DNA of 63,989 bases, the filler included, from Dirinaria sp. TL-2023a (lineage: Eukaryota): NCBI GenBank assembly GCA_051941275.1. It is 4 parts of 4 records of this genome, joined end to end, with 100 filler letters (N's around TTAATTAATTAA, not from the genome) between each part and the next. Parts side by side here need not be neighbours in the genome. Positions count along the whole stretch, not along the records: positions 33,228 to 49,683 come from JAVEBF010000488.1; 3 more parts are not named here. One strand, written 5' to 3'. The notes beneath the pieces were generated by a model, which was not told the DNA's origin, did not search any database, and saw only the letters and a list, made by a program, of their open reading frames with translations. Of the stretch, positions 5,059-49,783 are shown piece by piece. Every line of letters begins with the position of its first letter. Positions within the stretch are counted from its first letter, which is position 1. Position numbers and translations under genes: made by a program.

Positions 5059-5251
5059 TACCTTAGCGGAGATATACGATTCCATGGGACCGAGAAGGCG
5101 CGGTGGCTCTGAAAACATAGTATAGACACCCTTATTGGTCGTAAAATACCGTGTAGATACTGTATCGACAACTTATTAATCGTTACGATACTGTTTTTCA
5201 GAGCTACTACCCCTTCTCGGTCCTATGGAATCGTATATCTCTGCTAAGGTA
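5059..5251. mobile_element. Fold-back / MITE-like element (~190 bp) with long terminal inverted repeats flanked by TA
   Basis: 5059-5098 is the reverse complement of 5212-5251 with 2 mismatches. Pairing continues inward (GGTGGCTCTGAAAA / TTTTCAGAGCTACT). TA lies on both sides of CCTTAGC...GCTAAGG. Confidence 0.65.
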
Positions 5252-5868: not shown

Positions 5869-7689
5869 TCAACTGTCCCACCTTTCATCCCAACCTTTTC
5901 TGTGATTTGGATAACGCAGCATTGGAGAAAGCGGCTTCTGAGTTTTCATGGTGGCTTTCCCCATAACTTGCTCGTATAGCCGCAAGTTCATCGCTGAAAG
6001 TCTTGGATCCCACCATGCCATAACGCCCGGTTGCTTGTGCTCGCTTGTCTTCCATTTATTGGTGAATAATGTATCTGGGTAGGGATCCATAGCTGATACA
6101 ACGTCAAATTGTGCCACTGCACCCTCGATGCCAGCATAAAACGTCGGGGAGAATGGTGATGGAGAAGAAAGTGAGTAAACAGGAGAGTCTGAGCGTGTAC
6201 GGAGGTACATATTGTAATTGCTTCGTATTTCCTTTGCCTGAAAGTGGTAATTGCAGCACGGTCGATGAGGCTGATAGGCTTCAATACCAGTACTCTTGAG
6301 TGGTGAGCCGGTATCGCAAGCGTCTAAATTCGAAGCGTGGTACATTCTACCACCTGGCATCCTGAGATCGAAGACTTTGATCATTGCATGTCTAGAGGCG
6401 CCAGCAGCAAAGCGCTCCTGACCAAAAGGTAGGAGAGAGTAGATAGCTGAGTTATCAACTGGGTCCATGAAGAAAATTGCTGATGATGCAGGTGATCGAG
6501 AATCATGGAGCCTAATATTTCCGTCATAGCCACCGCTCAAAAACAAATCTCCTTCAGCGCCGCCTGCTACAGACGACGGGGAAATCGGAGCAATGGGATA
6601 GATCGAAGTTGAGCCGGTGCTAGGAGCATCATTTTCCGAAGTTCGGCCTTCTGAGGTGGATTCGCCACCTCGAGCGTCTACCTCGTACTTCCAAATTGGC
6701 CTCTCCGAAAACCCAGCTTCTCGTATACCATAAACGAGTAGTGGTTGACCCGAAGGACCCCGGCCCACAGCAAGGCGGTCCTGTCGGAGAAAGCGAGAGG
6801 ACCAGGTTCTGCCAGGTCGGCCAGGGGGGATCGCGGATACTTCGCTAAGCGGCCTTTGGGAATCACCTTGGGAAACAGCCGCATATAGCGCGACTATGCT
6901 ATCAGCTAAGCATGCTGCGATGAGTGGCGCTGGCGAGTCATTGACTGTAGCTGATCTGACAGGCCGTCCATTGGTAATGTAACGAGCCACAATATTGTGC
7001 TTTGGGCCCTGTGCGGCTACAGCAACCCGATCGAGCCTACCACTAGCTCGGCCCACTATAACGTGCTCTGATCCGTCATCCAATCGTTGGTGTGGGCGAA
7101 TTAGGTTGGTAGCAGTAATGTCATCCCTACCCTCAGCCATGTCCTTCTCGTGGTAAGTGATCCATTCGTGCACATGATGGTGGTGATCAATGGCCCCTTG
7201 CCTAAGCCGCCCCCTTTGCCCTTTCCGTTTCCTTTTTGCCTCATCGCCAGTCCACTTCAGCCTCAATATTAACTCGGCGCCTCCACCCCAGGCCAAAACC
7301 TCTTTTCGCGAGCTCCAGTTGCCGCCGCCGAATTCTTCATAGCTGTCAATAACTGGCTGGTAGCCCATCGTCTGGCGCCGCTGATGTGACAAATTCCAGT
7401 TCGAGACATTTTGTCCAGGTCTGAAAGGCTCGATATATCGAGCTATGAAAGCTTTCCGATCCCAGTTCCGCGACCAGGTGGTCAGAGAATGGGCGGCGTC
7501 CTTCCAAAGGGGCGGGGTTTGAAATGAAGGGAACCGTGTTTGCACGAACACTCTGAACCCATCGGTCTGTATAAAGTGATTGAGCCTCTTGCAAGTCAAA
7601 GCAATGCGCAGCAAAGTCTGTGCGTTTTCGCAGTGAACGATGAGCTGTGCAAGGAGCTCAGGAGGCAATTCCTCTAAGGACAGAGTCAT
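5869..7689 (-). CDS. F-box domain protein with C-terminal WD40-like beta-propeller (606 aa)
   Basis: N-terminal LEELPPELLAQL F-box-like motif. WD-like segments FLSGGYDGNIRLHDSR and MIKVFDLR. Confidence 0.8.
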   Translation of the reverse strand: MTLSLEELPPELLAQLIVHCENAQTLLRIALTCKRLNHFIQTDGFRVFVQTRFPSFQTPPLWKDAAHSLTTWSRNWDRKAFIARYIEPFRPGQNVSNWNLSHQRRQTMGYQPVIDSYEEFGGGNWSSRKEVLAWGGGAELILRLKWTGDEAKRKRKGQRGRLRQGAIDHHHHVHEWITYHEKDMAEGRDDITATNLIRPHQRLDDGSEHVIVGRASGRLDRVAVAAQGPKHNIVARYITNGRPVRSATVNDSPAPLIAACLADSIVALYAAVSQGDSQRPLSEVSAIPPGRPGRTWSSRFLRQDRLAVGRGPSGQPLLVYGIREAGFSERPIWKYEVDARGGESTSEGRTSENDAPSTGSTSIYPIAPISPSSVAGGAEGDLFLSGGYDGNIRLHDSRSPASSAIFFMDPVDNSAIYSLLPFGQERFAAGASRHAMIKVFDLRMPGGRMYHASNLDACDTGSPLKSTGIEAYQPHRPCCNYHFQAKEIRSNYNMYLRTRSDSPVYSLSSPSPFSPTFYAGIEGAVAQFDVVSAMDPYPDTLFTNKWKTSEHKQPGVMAWWDPRLSAMNLRLYEQVMGKATMKTQKPLSPMLRYPNHRKGWDERWDS

Positions 7690-8113
7690 TTCAGCAATCT
7701 GCGTTTTGCTAGCATCACGATAACGATGGAACCAATAGATATACCTAGAGTTTCAATCAGTCTGAAGAAGCTCAACTGTTCATGATGTTCGGATCGGATG
7801 TCGAAGATGAAACTTTACATGATGACGGCATCCCCTTCCCGATTATCATACGGTATTAAGATGCCTCGGATGCGTAATTGCGTACTCGTACCTTATCGAT
7901 AAGCCCTACCAAATTCTGCCGCCCTCCCGCCGAACCGCAGCGGGAGATGAACAGGGGTTGGAAATAACACCAGGGGATAATATTGGATGAACTGCAGTAC
8001 TTGCAGGTAGGAAGGCACAGGTACATAAAATACCATACCTTTCCATCTCTGACCTTACTGTATAAAGACTGGTCTGTCTCTTCCATTGAGCTCATAGTCA
8101 TGAAAAGTGTAAC

Positions 8114-9608
8114 ATGTGCTTAAATCATGTGCCGAGGCCGCTTGATAGTCCGATGAGATCATTGGTCTTTTACTGGATCCTATGGAAGTTGCTCCTCTTG
8201 GTGATTGCCTATCTGGCTCCTGGGCCCGGCTACGATACTTCTACGCAACTCCTATTCGTTCCAAATGAACCAGATTACGCAGCAGCGGCGTCCTTCGTCT
8301 CCAAGCTCGTCAAATGGGACGCTGTTTATTTCACCCAAATTGCACATCGGGGTGCCCTGTTTGAGCAAGAATGGGCTTTTGGCTGGGGCTTTGTAAACGT
8401 TTTGGGCTGGGTATCTAGGGGTGCGAAGCCATCCGAGAATGATTAATGGAAGCGGACTGACCCTTTCAGCTATGACCTCTGCTGGGCTGAGTGAACTTAC
8501 CTCGCCAGAGGCTGTCGCAGGCATTACCATCGCTCATTCGTCTCATCTGCTCTCCGTGCTTGTGCTGTTTCGTCTGTCGAAGGCTGTCTGCCTGAACGAT
8601 TCTGAGAGGGTTGCAGAAAGGTTCGCTCTTCTAGCGGCGGCCTTCCATGTCGTTTCACCAGCAGGCGTGTTCCTCTCGGCACCCTATGCTGAAAGCGCTT
8701 TTGCTTTGTTCAATTTTTCGGGATTCTATCTATATGCTATCTCGCATAATGAGCTAAAGAGGGGTCAGGATTTTGTGAGGTGTTCCGCGGCAAGGGTGGC
8801 AGCCGGGGTTTCCTTCGGATTGGCAACTACTCTCCGGAGCAATGGCCTGCTCAGTGGTTCTCTACTCGTTTGGGATGCTGTCGAAAGCGCATGGTGGGTT
8901 CTCACACGCCACCATGCTGCAATCGCCTTGCACCGCCTTTGTATCACTCTTGCAACTGGCTGTGTCATGGCTCTAGGTACTGCGGTTCCACAGTATCTCG
9001 CATACACGGAGTACTGTGGAAATTCAGCCCAAGATCGGAGGTCTTGGTGCTCAAATTGGATCCCGAGCATCTATACTTGGGTCCAAAATCATTATTGGTC
9101 AGTCATTCTGATCAAGACTCACGCCTGACTGGAGTTAACATTCGTTAGGGGAGTAGGATTTCTGAAGTACTGGACTCTTTCCAATGTACCATTGTTTTTG
9201 CTCGCAGGTCCTATGCTGTACATTACGATCTATTCCGCAATCTGGGCTTGGAAATGGAACTCGAATGTGGTTGGCGAAAGGCTCAGAGGAAAGGTTTCTT
9301 ACGAACGTGAACAGAGGCAAAACAATTATCACTATCCACAGGTCAAGTCGGATACTATGCAGAGACTTCTGCTGCCACAGCTACTGATGGCCTTATTGGC
9401 CTTGACGAATTCCCATGTTCAAATCATCAATCGCATCTCTTCCGGCTACCCCGTCTGGTACTGGTGGTTGGCTTGGTTGACGCTGAATAATCACAAATTT
9501 CGGTTCTTTGGGAGGCATATGGGCTCTGCACATCTCGTGGTCAGATGGATGGTGGCGTATGCATTGATACAGGGAGGACTGTTCGCAAGTTTTCTTCCGC
9601 CGGCTTAA
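8114..9608 (+). CDS. GPI18: GPI mannosyltransferase 2 (PIG-V family), spliced
   Basis: Motifs GYDTST, KWDAVYF, EQEWAFGWG, SPAGVFLSAPYAES, RSNG, YTWVQNHYW, NVPLFLLA, QIINRISSGYP, LFASFLPPA*. Confidence 0.93.
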
Positions 9609-16547: not shown

Positions 16548-16647
16548 NNNNNNNNNNNNNNNNNNNNNNNNNNNNNNNNNNNNNNNNNNNNTTAATTAAT
16601 TAANNNNNNNNNNNNNNNNNNNNNNNNNNNNNNNNNNNNNNNNNNNN
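16548..16647. other. Artificial contig linker (N run + TTAATTAATTAA + N run)
   Basis: Six-frame-stop spacer inside N runs. Identical at three places. Confidence 0.98.
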
Positions 16648-35182: not shown

Positions 35183-37726
35183 ATGGTATTGAAATCGTTC
35201 CACACAGATGTCTTGAACGGGTTGTGTTCTACGGATCAACTAGATTTGCTGAACTCTGTAGACTGTCTCCGTTCGCAAGGCATCAGTCATTATGTCTCAT
35301 TGTCACAGATTATCGTATGCGGCGATCAGTCGTCTGAAAAAAGCTCCGTGCTGAAAGCAATTTCTGACGTATCTTTTCCTGTCAAGAGCAACCTAAGCAC
35401 TCGATTTCCGACGAAATTAGTCCTTCGCAAGACGTCGCAAACGAGTGTAAGCGTGTCGATTGTCTCGCATCAAGCTCGCACTGAATTCGAACGACTTGCT
35501 CTCAGCAGCTTTCACGAACAGCTAGAGAACTTCGAAGAGCTCTCAGACCTGATTGAGAAAGCAAAAGCGACTATGAGAATCTCAGTTCATGACAAAGCTT
35601 TCTCGAAAGACTTTCTTCGAGTTGAGGTCTCGAGTTCTGATCGGCCTCACTTGACAATTGTAGATCTACCTGAACTCATTCATTCTGAAACGAAACAGCA
35701 GTCTGCTTTCGATGTCGAGCTCGTACAAGACGTCGTTCAATTCTACATGAAGGAACCGAGAAGTATCATTCTGACGATGATCTCGACGAAAAACGACTAT
35801 GCAAACCAAATCGTGTTGAAGCTCGCCCGTGCAGCGGATAAGAAGAGTAATCGAACACTGAGTGTCATTACGAAGTCTGATACTTTGCTTGCAGACTCCG
35901 AGAGTGAAGCCATGTACGTGTCTCTCGCGGGAAACCAGGATGTGAAGTTCCGTCTTGAGTGACACGTATTGAAAAACATGGACTCCGAAACAGAAGAGTG
36001 GTCATTGACGAATCGCGATGTTAAGGAAAAGAAATTCTTTTCTCAAGAGATATGAGAAGACATGTCTCGATCGCTCCTAGGCGTTAAAAAATTACGCAGC
36101 AGGCTCAGCAAGATTCTACTTGAGCAAATCGCTGCGGAGCTACCCAGCTTGATTGATGAGATTGAAGTCAAATCAAGCGCTTGCCGCAGCCGGTTAGATA
36201 AGCTTGGTGATCCTCGAGCTACATTAGCAGAGCAGCAACTCTACTTATTCCACTTAAGTCAAGCATTCCAGTCACTGGTAAAAGCTGCTGTGGATGGTAC
36301 ATACAACGATCCGTTTTTTGACGATCCTAAGTCCGGACCCGGCTATCAAAAGCGCATACGAGCTGTGGTACAGAACCTCAACCTAGAATTTGCAGACAAA
36401 ATCGTCAGACGAGGTCACTGCCGCGAGGTCACCGATTCGAATGACACAAGTCGCGTCTCCAAAGACGTAATCTCAATCATCAGAGATAGATTCGTTGACC
36501 ATATACAGCACCTGATAAAGAGAACCAAGGGCCGAGAGTTGCCAGGGACCTTCAATCCTATGATCGTGTCAGATTTATTCTTAGAGCAGTCAACTCCCTG
36601 GGAAGCCATCGCTCGGAGCCACGTTGACAAAGTCTGAAAGGCCGCTAGAGAATTTCTTGGCCATGCAGCCGCCTACGTCGCCGATGCCACAACCTTCAAA
36701 GCACTCTTTCAAAAGATATTCGAGCCTGCTCTGAATCAGCTACTGGAAAGTTTGAGTGACAAAACCACCGAGCTGCTAACACCACATCAGAGAAGTCACC
36801 CAATCACATACAATCATTATTTCACCGAAACTCTGCAGAAGCTCCGTAACGAACGCAACCAGAATGAATATTCGAAGATCGTAAAACAATTCTTTGGCGT
36901 TTCTTCCCTCGAAACACACCATTATTGTCGTGGCAACCATGACCTCTATCAACTTGTAACCACTTTGGTGCAACGTACAGAACCAGACATGAATCGCTTC
37001 GCCTGTTCCGAAGCTTTGGATTGTATGGAGGCTTATTACAAGGTCGACCTTCTATCTTTATCCTGCCCCTACTTCCACCATCTCCCTTGCTAACCTCATT
37101 ATGTGATTATAGGTTGCTTTGAAACGCTTCATCGACGACATGGCCGTCGAGGTAATCGAAGCGAAGCTCATCTCCCCGATCAGCAGTATCTTCACTCCCG
37201 TAGCTGTCTCTGCTATGTCCGCCGACCTCGTAACGAGCATGGCTGATGAATTCGAGGAGAACCGTGCCCAGCGTGAACAATTGATCAAGCAGCTTGAGGT
37301 TCTCATGAAAGGCTCTGATATCTGTAAGCGTTTCATCGGTGTTAGACTCCTTAGTAAGCCAGACCCCTGCTTGTTCCATTTTGGCATTTGCTTATATCCT
37401 GGGTAGGTGCAGACGGTGATGCACCTCAGTCTGATCCTGAGTTCAATGACGACTCTGCAAGCGATGGGTCTATTGACTTTGATAAGGCGTCTAAACTTAC
37501 CTTCGAGGGAGACACTAGATCGTCAACGGATGGATCCGTGAGGCCCAGGCGCCTTAGTATTGAAAGATCCGAGCCCGTGATCAAAGAGAAAACCCCTCTT
37601 TCTGCGTCAGATCTAGTCACAAAAACTCTAGAAAGTGAATTTGTTGAATTAGGCTTGGGCACTTCTAAGAAGTCCAAAAAGAAGTCGAAAGTTTCTGCAG
37701 CGCGATCTGTCTTTGAAGAGGATTGA
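35183..37726 (+). pseudogene. Dynamin-family (Mx-like) GTPase with GED, inactivated by in-frame TGA codons and motif substitutions
   Basis: QIIVCGDQSSEKSSVL (G1), STRFPT (G2), LTIVDLPEL (G3), VITKSD (G4), GRELPGTFNP, HPITYNHYF, AYYKV|ALKRFIDD. TGA at 35960, 36053 and 36635 in an otherwise continuous frame. Confidence 0.9.
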
Positions 37727-39650
37727 TTCTTTTTCACCAATTTCGGATTATTCTGATCAGTTGTAGCATGCACACACAACAAAGTCATGTGATGATAGGC
37801 TCTCACCGTCTTTAACCTGTCCATAACGTGATTAAAACCATGTGACGCAGAAGACTGCGGCCAAAAATAATCGCATTTCAGTAAGGACTTTTGGGAAAGT
37901 CCCCTAAATGCATCTAATCGCCACGACCACGCAATTGCGAAGTTCAGATCTTCCACCTGCATTCCAAAAATGTTCAGTCTTGAGGAGATCTTTGTAAGCT
38001 TTACCCATCAGTTGTCCCAGCGACGGTCGCATAGAGTGGGATTGATCGACTTACGTTCTCGCTGTATCCAACGTAGCATGCGTTAATCGAAGCGGCTGCT
38101 GGGCCGCCCCTTGCAGCCCGGCTGTCCCCGCTTTCGGGAGAAAACTTCGAGGCAGCTTGAAGCTTTGGTGATACGCGGCGCTTGTTATACACGGGCGGAA
38201 CGTTGGTGTAATCCTCCGCTTCTTCTGGAATCCCAAGGACCACAGGCTAACAGCAGCTTAGCCGTCCCTCATCATCGCCGCTGACTTAAATGCATGGGAT
38301 CTACACTAATGACGCCGCTGTATGCAGCGGTCCTTTTTACAGAACGAAGAGCAAGCAAAGGAAAATCCGTGCTCAGCTCCATGCCGAGAAGTCCGCCAAT
38401 CAGGAGCAAGGGAACCTCGACAGCAAAAAGTCTAAGGCTCTCGAAGCGCTTCTCTTGCAGCGTGTAGATGTCGATACCCCAATATGCCACTATATCTGGA
38501 TAATACGGTTGACACGGCACTGAAATGTGATCATCTATTTCGCGCAGATTGTTTGAAGAGCTGGGACAAGCCTTCGTGCCCGTCGTGCAGGGAACTTAAC
38601 GGCAATGTTTGCCGGCTCCAATTCTAAAGGGTTCTTTCCCACCCATCGGTCACATTGTCGTACGAGCAGACGCCGTAGTCCTCAATACGGGCAGCTTCGT
38701 AAATATGTCTGAGCACTGGAAGTAGGTATATCGATCTTTTGGATAAAGGCTAGCTCTAACCGCTGTTATTAAACACGGGAGCGGGATTACTTCCGAATTT
38801 CTAGAGTTCTCGTACTGATGTCTTCACTAGTAAGCTGACGAATTTCTCGGGCTTAGCATACTCACTGATAGGCTACAACATCTGATTCTAATTGAACTCA
38901 CGTCTGAAATATTCGATGATAAGTGATTTACTCGAGTGGCAGGTGTTCGAGAGCAACATGATCCCATAGCCTCGATAGGAGATGTAGTACATATCTCGGA
39001 TGCTGTCAAAGTCTTGCAGAAGTGTATGAGGTCAATGGCAAAAGATACCTACTTTGTTTATGGTTGACTTTTCCCCACGAGTAGCACTCGGCGTTGGCAT
39101 TTGACACTCGATGAGACCTTCAGCGGTCTATGTAAAGAGGAGAATGAATTTTGCCTTGAAATAAACTTGAAATTGATATGATATATAGAATGAATGCTTG
39201 AATCTTTACTACGAACAAGCTGCGTAAAAAATAAACGTCCAAGCGAGGCATTGATTCACATCAAGATTCTCTAGGAATGCCCGTTTGAGGAAAGTATGCT
39301 ATACACGATCAGGGCGCGAATGCAGTCACTCAGAAGTCCAAATACTTTGTTAGCAAGGCATCAACTCTCTCACTGCGCCAATTCTCCTGCTTAACGTCGC
39401 GCAGAAAAACTCGGATACTGGGTGTCAGAAACGGAGTAAAGTGTCAGAACCGGATAAGGCGCCAGAATTGAAGCAGATGCGAGAGCAATGTGTCAGTAAG
39501 TACTCGTTGCGGCAGCACTTCGACCAAAGGTATCACTCCTCTCGAACCACCCGACCTTGTCCTTTTCTCATCCTGATTACTGCGTACCTCTGAAGAAGGC
39601 TTGGACAGTGTGCTTTACACAGCAGCATGTTTTCGCCGACCAACAACACC

Positions 39651-40395
39651 CTACCTCCCTTGTCTCCACAACCACCTCTCAAATTCAGCAGCATCCAGCC
39701 CTTTCGGCACCAGCCTTTTAGCAGTCTTCCACCTCGTAGAAGCCCCAAAATTCCTGTGGCCCGCGGGATTCTCCATCAAATCCTTAACTTTCCGCGTCTC
39801 CGGGCTATCCTCCCCCTCGCAAATTACTCTCGATTTGTGTCCCCTCTCCGCAAAAACGCTCGCTCGAGCCTGGTCGCCATGAGTGATGCTGATTTGGAAG
39901 GCGTCATAGTAAAGCCTAGCAATCGAGGCATCAGCACCACAATAATACTCCTCCTCGAGGACTTAAAGTAAGGAGTGACAATCCGCTAGACAATCATCTG
40001 GCCTGCTCATCACCCTATTTGAATCACCGATTGCATCGTCCAGATGTTGGATTTGGAGTCGATGAGCGTCGCTGATTTGAAGCTCGGGAAGTGGGAGGAA
40101 GCAGACACTGCAATTGCAGTCGAAGCCGAATGCATCTTTCAGATAGGTCCGTCGGGAGTCGGAGGGACCACCTTTGTCGTAGGAGATGGTAATTTCTTCC
40201 CCTGCGTTGATGTAATGGATTGCGTGGATGGTTTCACACTTTGTACCGCTGTTCCAGCTATTGTGAGCATTTGGAAGGCAGCTGTGATTTATGAGGCAAA
40301 TGGTAGGATAGATGCCACCAATCACGGAGTTGGGACCGCAGGGCAGAGCGTTGGTTTTGACAACACCACTGAACGGGTATTTGCCAGGGAAATTG
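39651..40395 (-). pseudogene. SET-domain (SMYD/SET5-like) methyltransferase fragment, 5'-truncated, one in-frame TAA
   Basis: INHSCLPNA, GEEITISY, FGFDCNCSVC. After the stop at 39963 the frame continues VLEEEY..RLYYDAFQISITHGDQARASVFAER...FERWLWRQGR*. Confidence 0.85.
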
Positions 40396-40705
40396 CTTCT
40401 ACATTTAGCAGTGACTTTCCTTGCACGCCGTTTCAAGATGAAGGATCTAGAAGCACCTGCTCTTGGATTGCTTAGGTCTCAACTACAATCTGAAAGGCCA
40501 CCTGACGAGCTTATATATTGCATTCAAGAGCTATACGCCACTCGAGACTATGAAGCAACACATATCATCCTCACGGAAGCAGCAGACTTATACACAACTT
40601 CCAGCATTCGCGGAAACTCTTCATAAGACCGCTCGCAAGATCGGAGATTCTGCAGTCGACCTTATGAAGGGTTTCACGAAAAGTAGTAATCGGCACGCAG
40701 ATTGA
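40396..40705 (+). pseudogene. C-terminal fragment of a BTB/POZ-like protein, frameshifted
   Basis: LHLAVTFLARRFKMKDLEAPAL...CIQELYAT...KIGDSAVDLM resembles the helices that follow fungal BTB domains. No start codon. Confidence 0.45.
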
Positions 40706-41495
40706 GAGTTTCAGAAGACCCTGCTCCAACAGCATACTTAGAGTCCCTATATACCACTATAGTGTTAAGCACTGTAACTATCAAAGGCACTCCAATGACA
40801 GTTGCGCAAAGATGGGAAGGAATGTGAGAGATTGCTTGGGAAAGAAAGATGGCGGATTATGTTGCGGGAAAGCGGCGAGGGGTGGTGCTGGCGCGCTTTG
40901 CCCTATCGGAGGGACGCCAAACCCAGCTGCGCCGACACCTCGACCCAGATAACAGCACGAAACTTTCGACGCCACTTGTGCAGCACGCCTTTACAGTCAT
41001 GTGATAATGCGACACATCCCGAAGAAAGGACCCATCGCGAAGTTTCTGACCTGACCACAAGGAGCTCAAGAAGCGTCGGCTGATTATGGTGGACCCACTG
41101 AGGCTTACCGAGGGGAAGATGAGTGAAGGACGAGCAAAAAGAGGGGAGAACAGCACGTGGACCAGTGTGTTCTGGGGAGGAAAGATGCTAGGTTTTTCTA
41201 TGATCCCCTTGAGACGCTGGAATGTGGCGCACGAGGATCACTTTCTACGTAAAAAAAAAAAGCAAAAAAAAAAAAAATGAAGACTACTTCTTCTCGTCCT
41301 CCTATTCGCCGACTAGGATCCAGGCATGCTGGTTACGTTCCAGCAGTGATAGAACGCAGTGAATCCCAAAGATACAGCTGCACGCGTATTGCTAATGGTG
41401 GGGTTCCAGGCGACCCTTTAGACTCAGCCAATGGAAATCGAAAGGTGGGAAGTGGGTGCAGCTGTAAGAAGAATGGGCCCGGCTGAGGGTGCGTG

Positions 41496-41501
41496 TATAA
41501 A
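41496..41501 (+). promoter_or_regulatory. Putative TATA box of the ART-like gene
   Basis: TATAAA about 180 bp upstream of ATG 41679, followed by a pyrimidine-rich tract. Confidence 0.4.
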
Positions 41502-41678
41502 GGGAGCTTCCTTTTCGTCCTCATTTTGGGGAGTCTAACCCTTCCCAATCACACAGACACCTGGCATATGTGAGCAGAGCAGAGACTCAGCATCGCTAGC
41601 CCTCGTCGTCCCTGTCACGTTCGCTCCTCTTTGATTACCGGCATTCTATATTTCATACTCACGAAGCCGAATTTTGCA

Positions 41679-42125
41679 ATGACGCCTAGCGTGTTCTACC
41701 GAGTCCATGACGATTCGTCCGCAACTCATTTCGATGAAGAATACGGTTTCCTTGCGGGAGACGATCAAACAATGCTCAGAATGTTTCCTCGCAACGATTG
41801 GGAAGCTACAAGGCTACGCAACGCTTTAGACAGACATCTTGATTGGTTTAACAGGACAGCGTCGTCTTTTATTTCAGTCTACGTCAACTATGACGCTGCA
41901 TTCAACGGCGCTATTGCGCGGAAAAATCAGGGCAAGAGAGGAATTTTTATCGCTCATATCGACGTTCGGAAAAGTCGTGAGTGCATGTGGCGCCGGAATG
42001 TGCGAGAAGTCGCAGTCGATGTAGACATCTGGATCCAGCAACAGGCCTGGAACAACTCGGAATATGAGTATCTCTTTCTCAACCATATTTCAGCGGAGGC
42101 TGTGACTAAATTAGAGGACTTTTGA
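41679..42125 (+). CDS. Small ADP-ribosyltransferase-fold protein (R-S-E type, DUF7587-like), 148 aa
   Basis: Intact intronless ORF: VFYRV (catalytic-type Arg), RHLDW..SSFISVY (Ser motif), IAHID, SEYEYLFLNHI (ExE). Confidence 0.7.
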   Translation: MTPSVFYRVHDDSSATHFDEEYGFLAGDDQTMLRMFPRNDWEATRLRNALDRHLDWFNRTASSFISVYVNYDAAFNGAIARKNQGKRGIFIAHIDVRKSRECMWRRNVREVAVDVDIWIQQQAWNNSEYEYLFLNHISAEAVTKLEDF

Positions 42126-42862
42126 GTAAATTCCGTTGATCAAGAATGTACGAAACTCAGAGTGAGTTGGTAGGTCTTTCTTTGCTGCGACTTGAATTAA
42201 TCAAGCATAGGGTTTATTTCGCGTTCGTATAAGAGACCTGTCAGAGGAGAACAGATGGCCCAAAGTTTATATCAGACCTCAGAGGCAGAAGTCGTGTGAT
42301 AGCTAGAGCGGAAGCATAAAATTGATAGGATAGGAAGCGGATACAATTGTGGTGTTACCTGCGCCGCAAAGATTTGAGCTGCACCCTTCACTAGAATCTA
42401 GTTCCATGAGGATCATTATGAATACTATACATTCGTAGCTTATTGCATGCTACAGGCTGTAGGGCTCTTGGAAAGAATAATTGAGACCGTTTTAAAGGGA
42501 AATCCGTAGCTGCTATAGATATCCATCCGCAATCGCTTGCCCACGCTCTAGAGTACCTAGCAAGGCTAGAGGGAAGTGCCTAGTTGCCCACGATGTCACC
42601 TCATGAAGGTCATTTTCGTGACTGGCTTGCGCAATTGATAGGTATGTGGTCGCTTCTAGGCAGAGAGCTGACATAGAGCACACTAGGCATAGGCCTTCTC
42701 GATGCAGTTAGCGGCATGAGGATGAGGTTTTCGCAGCATACTTGGCAGTCCTCTTGGCGGTGTGCCTGGAGGAGCATATAATGCTCCATTTGCACCTCGT
42801 TTTTTGGGCTTCTACAATTGCTTCATCTTCTGCTAGCAACGCACTCGATATCGCATTGCAGA

Positions 42863-43038
42863 AGCGCTTTCCCACCCACCCACTCCAGGTATCGGCCGCA
42901 GAGGTAGATGGAGTTGTTGGCGCTAGAGGCAGCATGTTTTTGGCTTGCTAGATAAACGCCTTTGGCGCCGACGAGGCCCAAAACCTAATAGATATGACTT
43001 TGCAAAGAACTAGTCCCATGTGGCAACACAAGCACTTC
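42863..43038. repeat. Left copy of an inverted repeat pair (partner 49486-49683)
   Basis: The reverse complement TTTGGGCCTCGTCGGCGCCAAAGGCGTTTATCTAGCAAG…AAAACATGCTGCCTCTAGCGCCAACAACTCCATCTACC…GGAGTGGGTGGGTG matches 49544-49683 with one ~20-bp indel. A weaker match (CATGGGACTAG, GAAGTGCTT) extends further. Confidence 0.9.
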
Positions 43039-44619
43039 CGATCAAAAAGAACACCACAATGACTTATTCCCACATCCGCCAGGTGGTCAAGGCAAGCGAG
43101 AATTTCATCCGCGAGTTCAATGGCGCGATCTTTGTTGAAAGCTTTTTCTCAATCGCTTCTTCTTGGAACCCTCCGGAAATGATAATCTTGATGCTAAAGA
43201 ACCTTTCACGTAATACTTGGTATCCAACAGCAATCGCTTGATCATGTAAATTCTGACAAGATACCTCACGAAGTATATAGGGTACGCCGAAATTTGGATG
43301 GAGATCTGTAAGATGCGGCATTCCTCCCTCAAGGAAATCAAGCTCATCTTGCATAGAGAGGTTCAGACGTTTCGTGACCATCTCGAAGCTCAGAATGTGA
43401 TCAAAAAGACGCGAGGCTTCACAGATTCAATATATCTGTGGGCTAGAAAAAGGTAACGTCTCTCCCTACATAGCAAGAAACCTATCGTGCTAAGAAAAAC
43501 GATGGGTACTTTGACTTCAAGCAACTTAGACTCTGTGCATGCATCATTATTTCTTATAATTCTGTATAAGCCGTGTGCTGTAGCCGCTCTCGGACACTGG
43601 AGACCGCTCTCATCTAGAAAATTACGTTCGCGGCGTCATCTTACCGTCTGATTTGTGGAGAGCCTCCTTTCATAAGATAACGGAATTTCTTCACGACCGA
43701 ACCACCATCGAGCTCTTTTCAGTCTGCGACTCCTGAACGCGTTCGACGAACTGCCAGCGGCGCGCAGCATGCGATAGACCGCATTGACGCCCTCTCCTGC
43801 AAGCCTGGTTGCGGCCGCCCCGAAGTCCGCCGTCGTCATCCGTTTGCGTGAGCGTGCCGCTTCTCCGAGCTGCGGGGCAACTTCATTGTCCTCTCAGTCC
43901 TTGAACGGACACAACCTTGTATACTGAGCTCCTTGTGCGAACAGAATGGCCCGCCGTGAAGTCAGCTCGCTGTTCTGCAATCTCACCGCACGCTGTTCTG
44001 AGACCGTGGCTTCTTTCCTCGACCAAATTGGGCTCAGCGCTACGGTAGAGAAATGGAGAGTGCGCGAGCGAGTTCTAAAAATGGTGCTGCAAAGTAGGAA
44101 CTTGGAGTCCTAGAGACATCGATGCAACACCGATTATCTCGGCACGATCAAGCCCCGCTTTTGGAGAGTCGCACACGCCGAGTCTCAGGCAAAATCGAAT
44201 AGTTGCGGCGACACTGCGGCATCGAAAACAGCAGCGGACGTTCAGAGTCGTCAGGACTTGAAGCAGGTCGTAGAGCGACATCTGGATTGGCGATGCCGCA
44301 TACTCAGCAGCTTCATATCTGTTTTTGATGACAGAAAGCTAGCAGGGAAGGCACAGAATGCTATCAATCGCAATTAATCGTAGTCTGAATCGTTCTTCGA
44401 ATAGGGATCGAATCTTCTCCTGTGATATTCTTTCAACCACTGCTCTTTCTTCTCCCGCTGCGTCTCTCGCTCATCAATGAGGAACTGCTCATTGTTATAT
44501 GCCTGGTAGTCTTCTTCATTGTGAAATTCAACTCAATCATCCAGAGGGATCCATCTTTTTTTGTGGGAATTTTGTGACCTTGAGAGTTCATCCGTAGTCG
44601 TGCATCTCCTTCGTCAAAT

Positions 44620-45215
44620 CATTGCTTGGATCCTGTTCGGGGTACACGTCGAAATTGACAACAATCTCTTTGGGGAAGGAATATGCCTGAAGTGCGTGTC
44701 GAGTAAATCTAACGCCTTCGCTGCGATTGGCGAATCGCTGAGTGCGTAGTTCGCGCAATCCGGTGAAATCAACAGTTCAAGAGTCCTTATGCTTGTACAG
44801 GTATCTCGGACGAGATCTAGATTTTTAATATGCGCATTGTGAAGCCTAGCGCTATTCGGCTGAGGATAATTGAAGGTAGGGAAGGCAATGCAGATATGGC
44901 GAATATGGCTTGCTTGGGATACGATTTGGTGAAGGAATGGGGCGATGTGGGCGCTGTCCGTGGCAGACGGTATGGAGGTGAATAATTCAGGGAACCGGAA
45001 GCGATTCCTGGAATAGAGTAGTTTGTTGGCTTCGCTTTACATCCTCTTATTGATACGGAGGAGAGCTGGACACAGCCCGTCCTTTTTGAACCGATAGAAT
45101 GGCGGTGACTAAGGGCCATAGTTAGCTACAAGGACGATCGGTTCTGAGAGAACGAGGAGTTCCGAGTAGACGTTGAGCCAGATTTCACGAGCGGTGTCGA
45201 AGATATTCATTTCAG
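44620..45215 (-). pseudogene. Degenerate F-box-like / hypothetical fungal protein
   Basis: REIWLNVYSELLV…LCPALLRINKRM*SEANKLLYSRNRFRF…IRHICIAFP, with stops and a frameshift. Confidence 0.45.
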
Positions 45216-45617
45216 TTGGAGTAATGGAGGCGATGTCAAGTGGGAGTTGGTCATACGTTGTGCATGATATAGTACAGTTAGCATGATTTTCAATTGGGCA
45301 GGGGATCTCTGCTAGCGTATCGGAACATCTCGGTGGTACTCTTGGTGTACGTCTAGTGGTTACTAGTTCTATATCCGACGTTAATGATTAGCGTACTTAA
45401 GAGGATGCTTCGATCAAGAAGCAACTATCGGCGTTGTTAAATTAAGTCCTAGGAATTATATAATAGAGGCTTCTTGTACCTTGCACTCAGTTCTCTTCTC
45501 GACACCTTCGTCATCTTTGTGTTCTCTCTGCTTTATCCTGCCTCTATCCATCTTGCCTCAAAGTACTCAAAGAAGTACGATTCCTCAGCGTCGCCCTTTA
45601 CATCAGTCAATCGTCAA

Positions 45618-46088
45618 ATGAAAAGGTGTACAACAATAGTTGATGCGCTTTTGAGACGGTGGCATGGAATGTTAGGTCTACCGCGGCAATCATCACCATT
45701 CTGGTACCGAGATCGACTTCGGGAGGAACTACAGGAACGTCGGATCGCAATATCACCCTGGCAGAAGCTCAGCGAGACATCAGATGTCCTTTTTTCCATC
45801 AGTCGAGCTCAGTACGACGGGTTTTCGGTTCGAAAATTGCCCCCCTTTGTTGCGACTAGCCATGTCCTCGTCTACGTGTATATGCTGGCAAAGTTCACTT
45901 TACGATGGAATTTCTTCCGAACAGCTGCTATTATTTGCAACGCTTCTCATTACAACTTAGTGCGCGAAGTAGTGAATCCTAACAAAGACCAAAAGCTCGA
46001 AGAAGTCGCTTTACGTCACCAGATTGACCCGATGGAATTTAAAAGAGTTGGCTGCTTGCTGCGACAAGTATGGCCTCTTCTCCCGTAA
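45618..46088 (+). CDS. MazG/DUF550-like all-alpha NTP pyrophosphohydrolase candidate (156 aa)
   Basis: Intact ORF from ATG 45618. RLREELQE-x13-ETSDVLF matches the ExxE...ExxD metal-binding signature of all-alpha NTP-PPases. Followed by MLAKFTLRW and VREVVNP.KD.KL. Confidence 0.6.
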   Translation: MKRCTTIVDALLRRWHGMLGLPRQSSPFWYRDRLREELQERRIAISPWQKLSETSDVLFSISRAQYDGFSVRKLPPFVATSHVLVYVYMLAKFTLRWNFFRTAAIICNASHYNLVREVVNPNKDQKLEEVALRHQIDPMEFKRVGCLLRQVWPLLP

Positions 46089-46463
46089 AGACGCTCTTTC
46101 GGTGATCGTCAGACTCAGCCATTGGAACGAGATCGAGAGAATACCAAAGCCACAGCCAATGACTTGATGCAAATCTCTTAGTCTTGTGTAACATTTGTTC
46201 AGTCATTGCTCTATTCTCTGTCGTTTGCCACTTCCATATCTTAAATTTCCCCAAAGGGGCTGGGTGCATGCGTGCAAAAAGTGGGCTGCTGCGGCAGAGT
46301 TTTCGAAAATCAAGGTCGCCCAGAACTCGATAACCAGTGCGGCCGACCTTGCATCTTACCTCCATATCGCCTTACACTGGCTAAATCTAATAAGATATAT
46401 ATCATCGAATATCGGATTAAGTTTCCTACCCACTCTTCCTAGAAGACCGAGGAAGTTAGTATA

Positions 46464-48569
46464 ATGCCTACAAACTTTGAGAACGCATTCAGCAACACAT
46501 CGAACTCAACGGCGGATCTTCAGCTAAATCAACTTTCAATCACTGAAGTTCGATCTGCTTCCGATCAAAAAGCAGTAGTTGTCGGCTTGTACGAAGTTTC
46601 AGGCTCTGGCAAAACGTTTCTTCTAAATCAGCTGAAGGACACACTCGGACAGACGTATTTCGCGTTCTACGAAGACTTCGAGATGATTGTCACTCTTGTT
46701 CCTGGCGGTCTTGAAGCATTCCAGGGCATGGAAGAGCAAGAGAAGACGCATTGGCGCCGGCATGCTATCGACACAATTGAAAAGAGCTGCGCTGACAGCG
46801 GACACGTTGCAGTTGTCGCTGGACATTTCATGTTTTGATTAGAGGAGCAGGAAGCTGAATGGCCGGTGTATACCCAAAATGACTTGGAAATATTTACGCA
46901 CATTCTCTATCTGGACATCCCCGCAGAGGTTGTCGCTCAACGTCGTATGAACGACGCGGAAAGGAGTCGTCCGTCCACATCGGCAAGTCATCTGTACAAG
47001 TGGCAGCAGGAAGAAAAGACTCAGCTACGCGATCTCTGCCGCCGTCATAGCATTTTGTTCTCGCTTGTATCTTCAAATCCGAGTCTGCTGAACAAAGTCT
47101 CGATACTTCTAAACGACTTCAGGTATCACGTCGAGAATTATAACCTATCTCAGGTCGAAAATAAGCTGAACGATGCCATTTTTGTCAGTCAAGGTCGGCT
47201 GGAGACAGTCTTGTTCGTGAACGCCGATAGGACGTTGGCTGCAGAGGACACAGGCGCGTTGTTCTGAAAGAGAATTTCCGACTTGCGCTCATTGGAGTAT
47301 GAAGCATCTACACTGAAGAAGTTATTCAGCGGCCCTCTCGGTCACTCATATACTGCTTTTCGTCAGGCGGTATTGCTGTATGAAGAGACGGCCAATGATC
47401 AAGAGTTTGATGCCCTTTGCCAAGACGTGGCATTGGGGGTGACCATGCATCCCGAGTTTGTGTCCCTGCTGCGACTGGTGGCAGAGCAAAAACATGTTGG
47501 CGCAGTGGTGGTCATCTGTGGGCTGCGCCGTGTCTGGGATAAGGTGCTGGAGAGAGAAGGCCTATCTGAGAAGGTGAAGGTCATTGGTGGGGGACGTATT
47601 GCAGATGGTTTCGTCGTCTCCGCGGCAGTAAAAGACGCCTTGGTTAGCCGTTTGCGAGAGACCCACCACATTTGTGTCTGGGCGTTCGGAGATAGTCCGC
47701 TGGACTTGGACATGTTGTGCATGGCAGATCAAGCCATTATTGTGGTTGGTGAAGAACAGACCAGGAGCAAGACCATGGATGCTGCCTTGACAAGTGCCAT
47801 CGACTACCACGGTCTTCGGGCACGCCAGGCTGTGTTGCCAATTAAGGCCTCGCCACGGCTAGATATTACGAAGCTTCCCATGATCAAGCTCACTGAGCCA
47901 GAGTTCGTCGAGTCTCTCCTATGCGGCCGATCCACACATGGTGGTCTTCAAGTCCTTTGCCCCACAGATACGAATGCCGCGAAACTGCTCGCAACGCCGA
48001 TGCGCGATGCAGCTGTTGCCGGCCCTGGCCTAAGGGAAGCGCATCGCTTTGTTGGACGGTATCTGGCGATCGAGTTCCTGGCCGATGTAATAGGTCTCGA
48101 ACAGACTCCAATTCGGCATGTCCTGAGTCATCAAACAATGGGCTACCAGCTTTTTCACGAGCATCAGACAACGATCGTAGCTCTAATGCGCGGCGGAGAG
48201 CCCATGGCTTCTGGTGTCAATGAGGCCTTTCCACTTGTCATGTTCGTCCACGCCAGCGATGCTGACGACATCAAACCCCATCATTTGCAAGGACAGGTCA
48301 CAGTAATACTAGTTGATTCGGTAGTCAACACCGGCAAAACGATTATTGAATTTGTGCAGCGCGTTCGCAAGCTTCATGCCACTGTTCGCATCGTGGTAGT
48401 TGCCGGTGTTGTTCAGGCTCAGTGCGTTTCAGGGGGAAGTCTCAACCACACACTTGCACGTCACGCACAACTTCATCTTGTTGCACTTCGCCTTTCCGAC
48501 ACCAAATTCACCGACAGTGGCATCACAGACACCGGCAACCGACTATTCAACACGACGCATTTACCATAA
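46464..48569 (+). pseudogene. Tri-domain P-loop (NMP-kinase-like) - HAD - uracil phosphoribosyltransferase fusion (~701 codons), two in-frame TGA at Trp positions
   Basis: VVGLYEVSGSGKT and THILYLD..RR.D (kinase). VLFVNADRTL and WAFGDSPLD (HAD). IVALMRGGEPMA, VILVDSVVNTGKT and TDTGNRLFNT (PRTase). The three ORF pieces are in one frame, split only by TGA at 46836 and 47265. Confidence 0.88.
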
Positions 48570-49485
48570 CTAAATCTCTTACACCAAGTACAGTTCCGCA
48601 TGAATAAGAACCGACTGGACGATCTCAACACCGTTCCGAGTTTCTGTACACTGAGAACTAAAAATGCTACTTCGTCAAAAGCTCTACGTACTTTTCTACA
48701 TCATTTTCATTTCCAATAAACTTCCTAATGAGACAACATTGCATAACTCGTGCTGTATTCAGTGCATTAAGAGCTCCTGAGACTTTATCGATTCTAGAAA
48801 GAAGAACAGTCCTAGTAAATGATGGGCTCCTGAGATAACTTTCTTATGAGGCTAAAGTTCAGGCACGCCCACCTAGACGCCAGTAACTATTAGGAAATAA
48901 GGCGTTAAGGATAGATATTCCCGAACGATTATTATCAAGCAGACACCTAGAAATACGTAGAGTTTATTCCTGATACTGTGCCTGGGATAGCATAGGTTCT
49001 AGGAGACTTGGCTGGGGAGAGCCAATTTCCGCGCGGATATTGCTGGAAACCTAATATTAAAGTTTTGTGAGGAATTGCTGATTAGGGTTTTGTGAGTAGG
49101 GCCTTATGGAAGTAGGATGCTCAAATTCCAGTTTCTTGGAACTTTCCACCATCAAAATCGTAAAATAAAGAACGTATGATTCACCATCTTGCGCTGAGGA
49201 CCTTTCATATGTGTAAATTGCCATAATATTCTGAATATTGCAGTAACACGTCCAGCAATTGACTCCGCTTTCCGAGATCATTGCACGTCAAGAGCTAGCA
49301 GCGCGCTTCAGAGAGAAGTTCTTGTAGACTGTGGCCATGTAAAACACGTCAACGAGAGCTCCAAGAGACCCATGTCTCACCACACGAATCTCCGTTGTAG
49401 ACTGTAGCCATGCAGAGGTCGCGTCTTGACGCGTAACAACCGTGAGTGTATGTCTGTGTTTTTCAATGCCCGAACTCAACTCCAA

Positions 49486-49683
49486 GAAGTGCTTTCGATG
49501 CCTCATGGGACTAGCAAATATAGGCACAAACGAGTGAACTGAATTTGGGCCTCGTCGGCGCCAGAGGCGTCTATCTAGCAAGCAAGCAAACGAAAACACG
49601 ACCTCAAAACATGCTGCCTCTAGCGTCAACAACTCCCTCTACCTATGCGGCCGATATCTGGAGTGGGTGGGTGAAAAAGCGCT
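49486..49683. repeat. Right copy of the inverted repeat pair, cut by the contig end
   Basis: See 42863-43038. The ORF track shows matching peptides MLPLAPTTPSTSAADTWSGWVGKR (-) and MLPLASTTPSTYAADIWSGWVKKR (+). Confidence 0.9.
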
Positions 49684-49783
49684 NNNNNNNNNNNNNNNNN
49701 NNNNNNNNNNNNNNNNNNNNNNNNNNNTTAATTAATTAANNNNNNNNNNNNNNNNNNNNNNNNNNNNNNNNNNNNNNNNNNNN
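49684..49783. other. Artificial contig linker
   Basis: N run + TTAATTAATTAA + N run. Confidence 0.98.

Follow-up and report, generated by a model that had tools for sequence, protein, structure and literature searches.

Repeat-directed C-to-T mutation at CpC dinucleotides in the genome of Dirinaria sp. TL-2023a

Two decayed genes on contig C488

We analyzed a stretch of 63,989 nucleotides (hereafter the window) from the genome of Dirinaria sp. TL-2023a (GenBank assembly GCA_051941275.1; 27.7 Mb in 3105 contigs, here coded G000), in which a dynamin-family GTPase gene and a gene for an AAA_17-HAD-UPRTase fusion protein have decayed through C-to-T changes concentrated at the dinucleotide CpC. 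A first-pass annotation, made by a model from the sequence alone, had attributed these changes to a defence resembling repeat-induced point mutation (RIP), with CpC rather than CpA as its target. The window consists of four contigs, between which spacers of N that contain a short linker have been placed (16548-16647, 33128-33227 and 49684-49783), and is therefore no continuous locus; a shared neighbourhood is not shown for genes on separate pieces, and since the contigs of the assembly become shorter as their numbers rise, the pieces are probably unrelated. The whole finding is confined to contig C488 (Table 1).

Both genes can be read in one frame with zero indels, as the first-pass annotation had stated. 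It had also described all five in-frame stops as TGG>TGA, and the homologues indeed have tryptophan at each of the TGA codons, three of which lie in the dynamin gene (35960, 36053 and 36635) and two in the fusion gene (Table 1). The dynamin gene was compared with the best 60 of the 120 homologues listed, and columns shared by at least 80% of the homologues were considered conserved. It departs at 45 of 477 conserved columns, and 36 of the departures are explained by a single C>T change that affects, on one strand or the other, the first C of a CpC, as compared to one at CpT, one at CpA and seven by neither. Expressed per opportunity, the nonsynonymous changes number 36/102 at CC versus 2/311 at CA, CG and CT together (Fisher p = 3e-22). 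Departures of the types P>S, G>E and G>D total 14, while the median homologue has none and the maximum is four. The substitutions singled out before the alignment was made (P41S, G52E, E58K, G62D, G164E, P232S, G259E and W260 to stop) all fall in conserved columns, each with one CpC C>T change.

An RNA contig from a different lichen sample (X1) spans 35073-37757 in spliced form, the two GT..AG introns being gone. The listed differences between the two sequences are 43 A>G, 30 T>C, 5 C>T, 5 G>A and 3 transversions, and in 73 of the 83 transitions it is the window that has the derived base. Among the 24 differences for which the context was read, the window is derived in 20 (18 at CpC, 2 at CpT) and X1 in three, all at CpG; the last is a transversion. 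The changes are missing from the spliced X1 as well as from the intact homologues, and CpC dominates the spectra, so that neither of the two results that would have contradicted the first-pass annotation was obtained. The five sequencing runs that share the most words with the dynamin gene all come from lichen metagenomes. An alternative genetic code, with TGA read as tryptophan, is ruled out, since numerous missense changes of this class accompany the stops and X1 is mostly ancestral.

The fusion gene, compared with the best 40 of the 150 homologues listed, shows 15 departures at 182 columns, of which 10 are CpC-type, one is CpA and four are other. The nonsynonymous changes per opportunity were 10/62 at CC versus 1/117 at CA, CG and CT (p = 1e-4). 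Four of the proposed changes (G44E, W125 to stop, D253N at 47220 and W268 to stop) were confirmed as CpC-type, whereas the suggested P>S in the P-loop lies outside the conserved columns and is unconfirmed. The alignments thus bear out CpC as the target in both genes, but not the claim that every change is of this kind, as 9/45 departures in the dynamin gene and 5/15 in the fusion gene are of other kinds, CpT being a weak second target.

Mutation follows a duplicated segment

The region from 33228 to 36232 is a duplicated segment with an observed/expected ratio of CC of 0.51, as compared to 0.94 ± 0.05 (minimum 0.81) for the three remaining contigs, measured in 89 windows of 3 kb that overlap. 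Copies on contigs C836, C265 and C748 together cover most of this dense patch, while no partner was found in the assembly for 34789-35433. The patch had been recognized previously; a second one, then placed at 46.4-46.9 kb, was found to extend to about 47.3 kb.

Aligned with the C748 copy, the window differs by 52 transitions and 3 transversions, distributed by context as CpC 31/40, CpT 12/127, CpA 4/100 and CpG 3/103. In conserved dynamin codons, CC-type departures amount to 34/298 up to position 36232 versus 2/179 beyond it (p = 8e-6), and the number of CC+GG in C748 drops at the junction, from about 50 to 20 per 500 bases. Site polarity was determined with five metagenome homologues as the outgroup. 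By this measure, the CCD sites (D being A, G or T) mutated within the duplicate number 31/61 for the window and 33/50 for C748; beyond the duplicate, they number 6/48 for the window. Of 68 CC sites in the outgroup, 23 are mutated in both copies, 10 in the window alone, 17 in C748 alone and 18 in neither, which is near independence (p = 0.09). Both duplicate copies are mutated, largely independently, and the mutation follows the duplicated DNA and declines at its edge.

A 13-kb contig from a run of another organism (X8) spans 34524-36232 and departs at the junction of C748 (36232 in the window; L002:1471-1501); X8 and C748 differ at several sites. Since both leave the window sequence at an identical junction, the truncated dynamin duplicate is shared beyond this assembly.

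Table 1. Features of the window, with partner copies of the duplicated segment (positions in the window unless a contig is named)
Feature	Position	Strand	Remarks
Duplicated segment	33228..36232		dense CpC>TpC mutation
Partner copy on C836	33228-34045		88-95% identity
Partner copy on C265	33232-34788		77% identity
Partner copy on C748	35434-36232		93% identity
Dynamin-family GTPase pseudogene, first exon (Dynamin_N, Dynamin_M)	35183..37045	+	36 CpC-type amino-acid changes
Two GT..AG dynamin introns (~37043-37112 and ~37354-37406) and the exon between	37041..37406	+	introns removed in RNA contig X1
AAA_17-HAD-UPRTase fusion pseudogene	46464..48569	+	TGA at 46836 and 47265; 10 CpC-type changes
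Contig C488 (G000:C488)	33228..49683		accessory block bearing repeats
SET-domain gene	39651..40478	-	in-frame stop TAA at 39963-39965, putatively from CAA
DUF7587-domain open frame	41574-42125		among broken genes of C488
Two short multi-copy repeats	49166-49479 and 49485-49683		end of contig C488
Contig C486	1-16547

Retrotransposons and the target motif

A genome-wide survey for reverse transcriptases gave 32 matches, from which 30 loci were used. The ratio (CC+GG)/(TC+GA) was below 0.2 in 17 of the 30 loci, as compared to 0.82-0.86 in the gene-rich contigs of the window. CpA-based RIP indices (TpA/ApT above 1.15 and the substrate index (CpA+TpG)/(ApC+GpT) below 0.75, thresholds that we take to be the customary ones) were positive in none of the 30. 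Similarly, 106 of 536 partly overlapping 500-base windows from the fetched loci of this genome were depleted in CC, and 2 were marginally CpA-like. The stripped loci, together with the fall at the edge of the duplicate, support the RIP-like defence with CpC specificity that had been proposed from the sequence.

One Ty3/gypsy element with a chromodomain and open frames (L071:1860-5798) has a normal CC content. Comparisons with L071 started from 40 matches, which gave 30 loci and finally 22 alignments (at least 84% identity and at least 100 bases, one duplicate locus removed). These alignments, which overlap in the long terminal repeat (LTR), contain 544 transitions and 19 transversions, with CC changed at 361/699, CT at 85/1069, CA at 38/918 and CG at 3/670. 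The four internal copies that do not overlap differ from L071 by 240 transitions and 3 transversions, with 6 reverse changes. In these copies, CC is mutated at 184/225 overall and CCD at 176/182 (CCA 63/64, CCG 40/40, CCT 73/78), whereas CCC is mutated at 8/43. Changes at CT reach 35/251 (CTA 16/50, CTT 13/77, CTC 4/71, CTG 2/53), at CA 15/206 and at CG 0/191. L071 persists among saturated copies, and some CpC changes are already present in its LTR-like part.

The fate of individual sites identifies the mutated base. Isolated CC became TC in 132 cases, TT in 10 and CT in one, and was unchanged in 5; CCC became CTC in 23 cases, TTC in 2 and TCC in none, and CCCC became TCTC in 6 and CCTC in 3. 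The base 5' of the target is neutral (0.47-0.56), and the bases at +1 and +2 decide. The motif is 5'-[C]CD-3', and [C]TA and [C]TT rank second. Once CC is gone in both copies, the differences move mainly to CpT and then to CpA, as for L019 versus L020. The length threshold of RIP is about 400 bases. For an LTR-like repeat of 350 bases, CC is mutated at 128/379 across 13 copies, as compared to 184/225 in the internal copies, the age of the copies being uncontrolled in this comparison.

Three known processes do not fit these spectra. Canonical CpA RIP fails on the counts at CA and CC in the internal copies, on the lack of positive reverse-transcriptase loci and on the two marginal windows in 536, in agreement with the first-pass annotation. 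Deamination of 5-methylcytosine at CpG, of the Masc2/DNMT5 type, fails on CG (0/191 and 3/670). Editing of the APOBEC3G type mutates the 3' C of CC and takes its context from the 5' side, whereas isolated CC here becomes TC rather than CT and the 5' base is neutral.

Metagenome loci of other organisms

Metagenome contigs were scanned with an intact dynamin homologue, which gave 79 loci, 55 of them from one accession series. A CC-depleted kilobase was present in 10 loci and a CpA-RIP kilobase in 11 or 12, according to two scoring rules; all of them belong to the 55-locus series and none to the other 24 loci. Nine of the ten CC-depleted loci are of the CpC type (L105-L107, L134, L135, L158-L160 and L180) and represent about four independent places. 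The tenth CC-depleted locus, L128, is no clean case. Its dynamin homologue (6001-8176) is wrecked by C>T in every context (Q>TAA/TAG, R>TGA, W>TGA/TAG), and its flanking DNA has 18% GC.

Over 9758 columns, L180 and L130 are separated by 711 transitions and 19 transversions, of which 695 are derived in L180. The changes in L180 are found at CC 614/897, CA 9/1260, CG 22/1010 and CT 18/1312, and the effect of the +2 base is weaker (CCC 60/201 versus 0.63-0.77 for CCD). Loci L158, L159 and L160 are alleles of nearly identical sequence whose differences lie mostly at CC (118/795 versus 5/1153 at CA), in a patch that resembles a DDE transposon locus of G000; a DDE_1 search of the latter genome gave 5 loci. 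The comparison of L105-L107 with L129 yielded 0.71-0.74 for CC versus about 0.08. Neither CC nor GG occurs in 3854 bases of L134 (10001-13854; 191 expected) and 1854 bases of L135 (12001-13854; 76 expected), and in these stretches CpG is lowered too and CpA is enriched. The loss of CC plus CG is a third flavour of the signature, next to CC then CT in G000 and CC alone in L180.

The CpA-type loci listed are L109, L117-L119, L122, L131 and L165. In L117-L119, L122 and L109, ordinary RIP has affected the same gene family, giving Q>TAA/TAG and W>TAG stops and values of 0.21-0.56 for CA. Since these relatives carry TAA/TAG stops, decay through TGA only is no property of the dynamin gene. The GH76 protein that flanks the signature in L135 has a best G000 match of 49%, which suggests that the host is distant from this genome, although the match may be to a paralogue. 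CpC and CpA loci within one metagenome assembly may derive from different fungi. The CpC signature also occurs outside this genome. A look-up of similar stretches in the other genomes scanned found none.

Methyltransferase genes

The only PF00145 match in the genome is a methyltransferase on contig C1379 (L006, G000:C1379). Its frame is open, contains motifs I, IV (PC), VI and VIII and aligns with residues 14-170 of M.HhaI. Over 153 residues, the protein is identical to one that NCBI labels Dirinaria sp., and its other named relatives come from lichen fungi. It has no Pfam BAH match, and a quick tree places it among RID-type proteins from lichen fungi; we take it to be RID from its domain layout, a name that is ours and not that of a source. 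The protein and three close relatives differ from the other 131-134 aligned proteins by several changes that include F>I, RR>SG after motif VI and T>V/I, and their catalytic-loop D>P is found in 20 other proteins too. Most of the lichen-fungus homologues have RR at the position where this clade has SG.

Queries with PF00145, BAH and DUF7893, the last of which is presumably linked to DIM-2, did not reveal DIM-2, but the assembly is incomplete and absence is not shown. Of the 23 proteins obtained in a search for longer proteins, none is listed as having a BAH domain.

Other repeats of the window

Copies of the two short repeats at the end of C488 diverge chiefly at CpC. The second of these (49485-49683) is related to a short multi-copy repeat at 42760-43040, with about 40 matches genome-wide, and one repeat of this kind is inserted into the partner of the duplicated segment on C836. 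At 5059-5251, C486 contains a palindrome about 195 bases long that resembles a miniature inverted-repeat transposable element and is present in L050 as well.

Discussion

The signature is real and repeat-directed; it is not canonical CpA RIP but RIP-like with a different target. We consider it probable that the explanation is a genome defence of the RIP type, in which the target has shifted. Duplicated DNA would be recognized by homology, a step suggested by the observed pattern, and a mutator with a C5-methyltransferase fold, most likely the RID homologue, would flip cytosines at [C]CD and, as weak secondary targets of the same enzyme, at [C]TA and [C]TT. C5 methyltransferases read the 3' side of the target cytosine, and we infer such a fold from the context at +1 and +2. 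If the chemistry resembles that proposed for Neurospora RIP, the flipped cytosine would become thymine through methylation and deamination or through direct deamination. Repeated rounds would strike both strands and both copies until CC/GG is exhausted, and CpT would then be eroded. In this way TGG would become TGA, proline, glycine and other CC/GG codons would be lost, and transposons and duplicated cargo genes, such as the dynamin gene, would be killed. By analogy, the process would take place in the sexual cycle, as premeiotic RIP run by RID.

In common with RIP by the RID route in Neurospora crassa and other Pezizomycotina, the changes are from C:G to T:A only, affect both copies and track the duplicated stretch; furthermore, a RID-type gene is present and the context is read 3'. 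The differences are that the target is [C]CD instead of CpA, that the stops are TGA instead of TAA/TAG and that TpA is depleted, for which reason CpA indices read negative. The +2 base also matters here, whereas the base past the dinucleotide is described as having little effect in Neurospora (10.1101/344036).

Precedents for differing dinucleotide targets among fungi come from PMC4352252, according to which RIP contexts vary by species and track RID, with CpT in Botrytis, Sclerotinia and Magnaporthe, and CpG or TpCpG in Tuber, rusts and Microbotryum. The passages covered from this survey of 10 genomes name CpA, CpT and CpG only, whereas CpG is the most spared context here. One sentence in a review (PMC9409882) has Coccidioides repeats affected "especially" at CpG and CpC. 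CpC is thus named as a target, and the pair resembles the CC-plus-CG loss of L134 and L135; however, CpC is given alongside CpG and without numbers, whereas in this genome CpG is spared and CpC is dominant. In the passages covered from PMC2621366 and PMC3017866, CpC is one of four possible classes and CpA is dominant, those from PMC7882544 do not mention CpC, and those from PMC12542154 and 10.1101/2025.11.25.690456 describe RIP in Cladonia and Xanthoria without CpC. Passages from PMC13297926, PMC8959702, PMC5555474 and PMC5602860 were also covered. No CpC-dominant case was found in the main-text passages covered from this literature; the nearest is PMC9409882, and the broadest survey (Clutterbuck 2011) may hold a precedent.

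Several observations weigh against a defence run by RID. The fusion gene is mutated yet no second copy of it was found in the assembly, and the remainder of C488 outside the dense patch is lightly depleted (observed/expected CC 0.85), so that spreading or lost copies must be assumed. A single round of RIP is expected to leave strand-coordinated clusters. No strand clustering was seen in heavily mutated copies, where 276 of 527 adjacent pairs are on the same strand and 268 ± 11 are expected (p = 0.23, one contig being counted twice), while all 11 changes are on a single strand in one lightly mutated alignment. CpA, the usual target of RID, is almost untouched, and a search of the assembly did not find the last RID exon, which holds the target-recognition region. 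Moreover, the RID residues peculiar to the clade cannot be linked to the CpC signature of the other organisms.

Some of these points would be met by a heterochromatin-directed, DIM-2-like methyltransferase that acts on CpC in repeats and in the DNA beside them, by methylation or by direct mutation and at least partly in mitosis, an explanation that we regard as unlikely. A DIM-2 route that reaches single-copy DNA would explain the fusion gene and the light depletion throughout C488. In Neurospora, this route mutates single-copy DNA beside repeats (10.1101/344036), and Dim2 of Zymoseptoria tritici raises mitotic C>T at CA and spares CG, with CC as the second CHH methylation context (PMC8016269). 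The signature shares with Neurospora linker RIP and mitotic Dim2 the sparing of CpG and the reach into single-copy DNA near repeats. However, DIM-2-dependent mutation prefers CpA, the three queries gave no DIM-2 in this incomplete assembly, and the mutation falls sharply at the edge of the duplication. That an unrelated cytosine deaminase or other new enzyme was recruited to repeats is very unlikely in our view, even though none of the RID contexts in the literature passages covered matches the target and the flavours of the signature vary. Known enzymes of the APOBEC/AID type take their context from 5' of the cytosine, where the base is neutral here.

Mispairing of O6-alkylguanine (GG>GA, AG>AA), fixed in unrepaired heterochromatin, appears highly improbable. 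The COSMIC single-base substitution signature SBS11 (temozolomide, O6-methylguanine) consists of C>T at NpCpC and NpCpT (PMC12556801), and it shares with this genome both contexts and the rank order CC > CT > CA > CG. Nevertheless, SBS11 reflects a chemical lesion on G that is neither repeat-targeted nor saturating, whereas here the effect is confined to repeats and CCD is mutated close to saturation, although CC remains normal in one copy of the element and in ordinary genes. Equal rates would also predict an even split between the products of CCC, in conflict with the excess of CTC (p = 2e-5), and L180 shows CC without CT. An artefact of sequencing, assembly or damage to a stored specimen, for which the fragmented assembly and one source that gives a metagenome-assembled genome as the origin of the matching protein might speak, is already largely refuted and hardly credible: only repeats are affected, the sites differ between copies, open-frame elements and core genes are untouched, and the same signature varies between alleles of independent assemblies (L158-L160).

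The [C]CD motif is new here, and so is the finding that metagenome contigs from other organisms bear this CpC signature. We tentatively suggest that CpC-directed mutation of repeats may be a second, overlooked mode of fungal defence, present in more than one lineage and switching between CpA and CpC among fungi that share mobile genes; the switch may be set by a few RID residues or by a different enzyme, and genomes scored as RIP-free by CpA indices may include active cases. RIP is almost always scored by CpA-based indices, which were blind on all 30 retrotransposon loci of this genome, including the 17 stripped of CC/GG. For such genomes, estimates of the distribution of RIP, of cryptic sex in lichens and of the decay of transposons and giant elements would be wrong. 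A natural change of target would also provide a handle on whether RID itself mutates DNA and on what sets its specificity.

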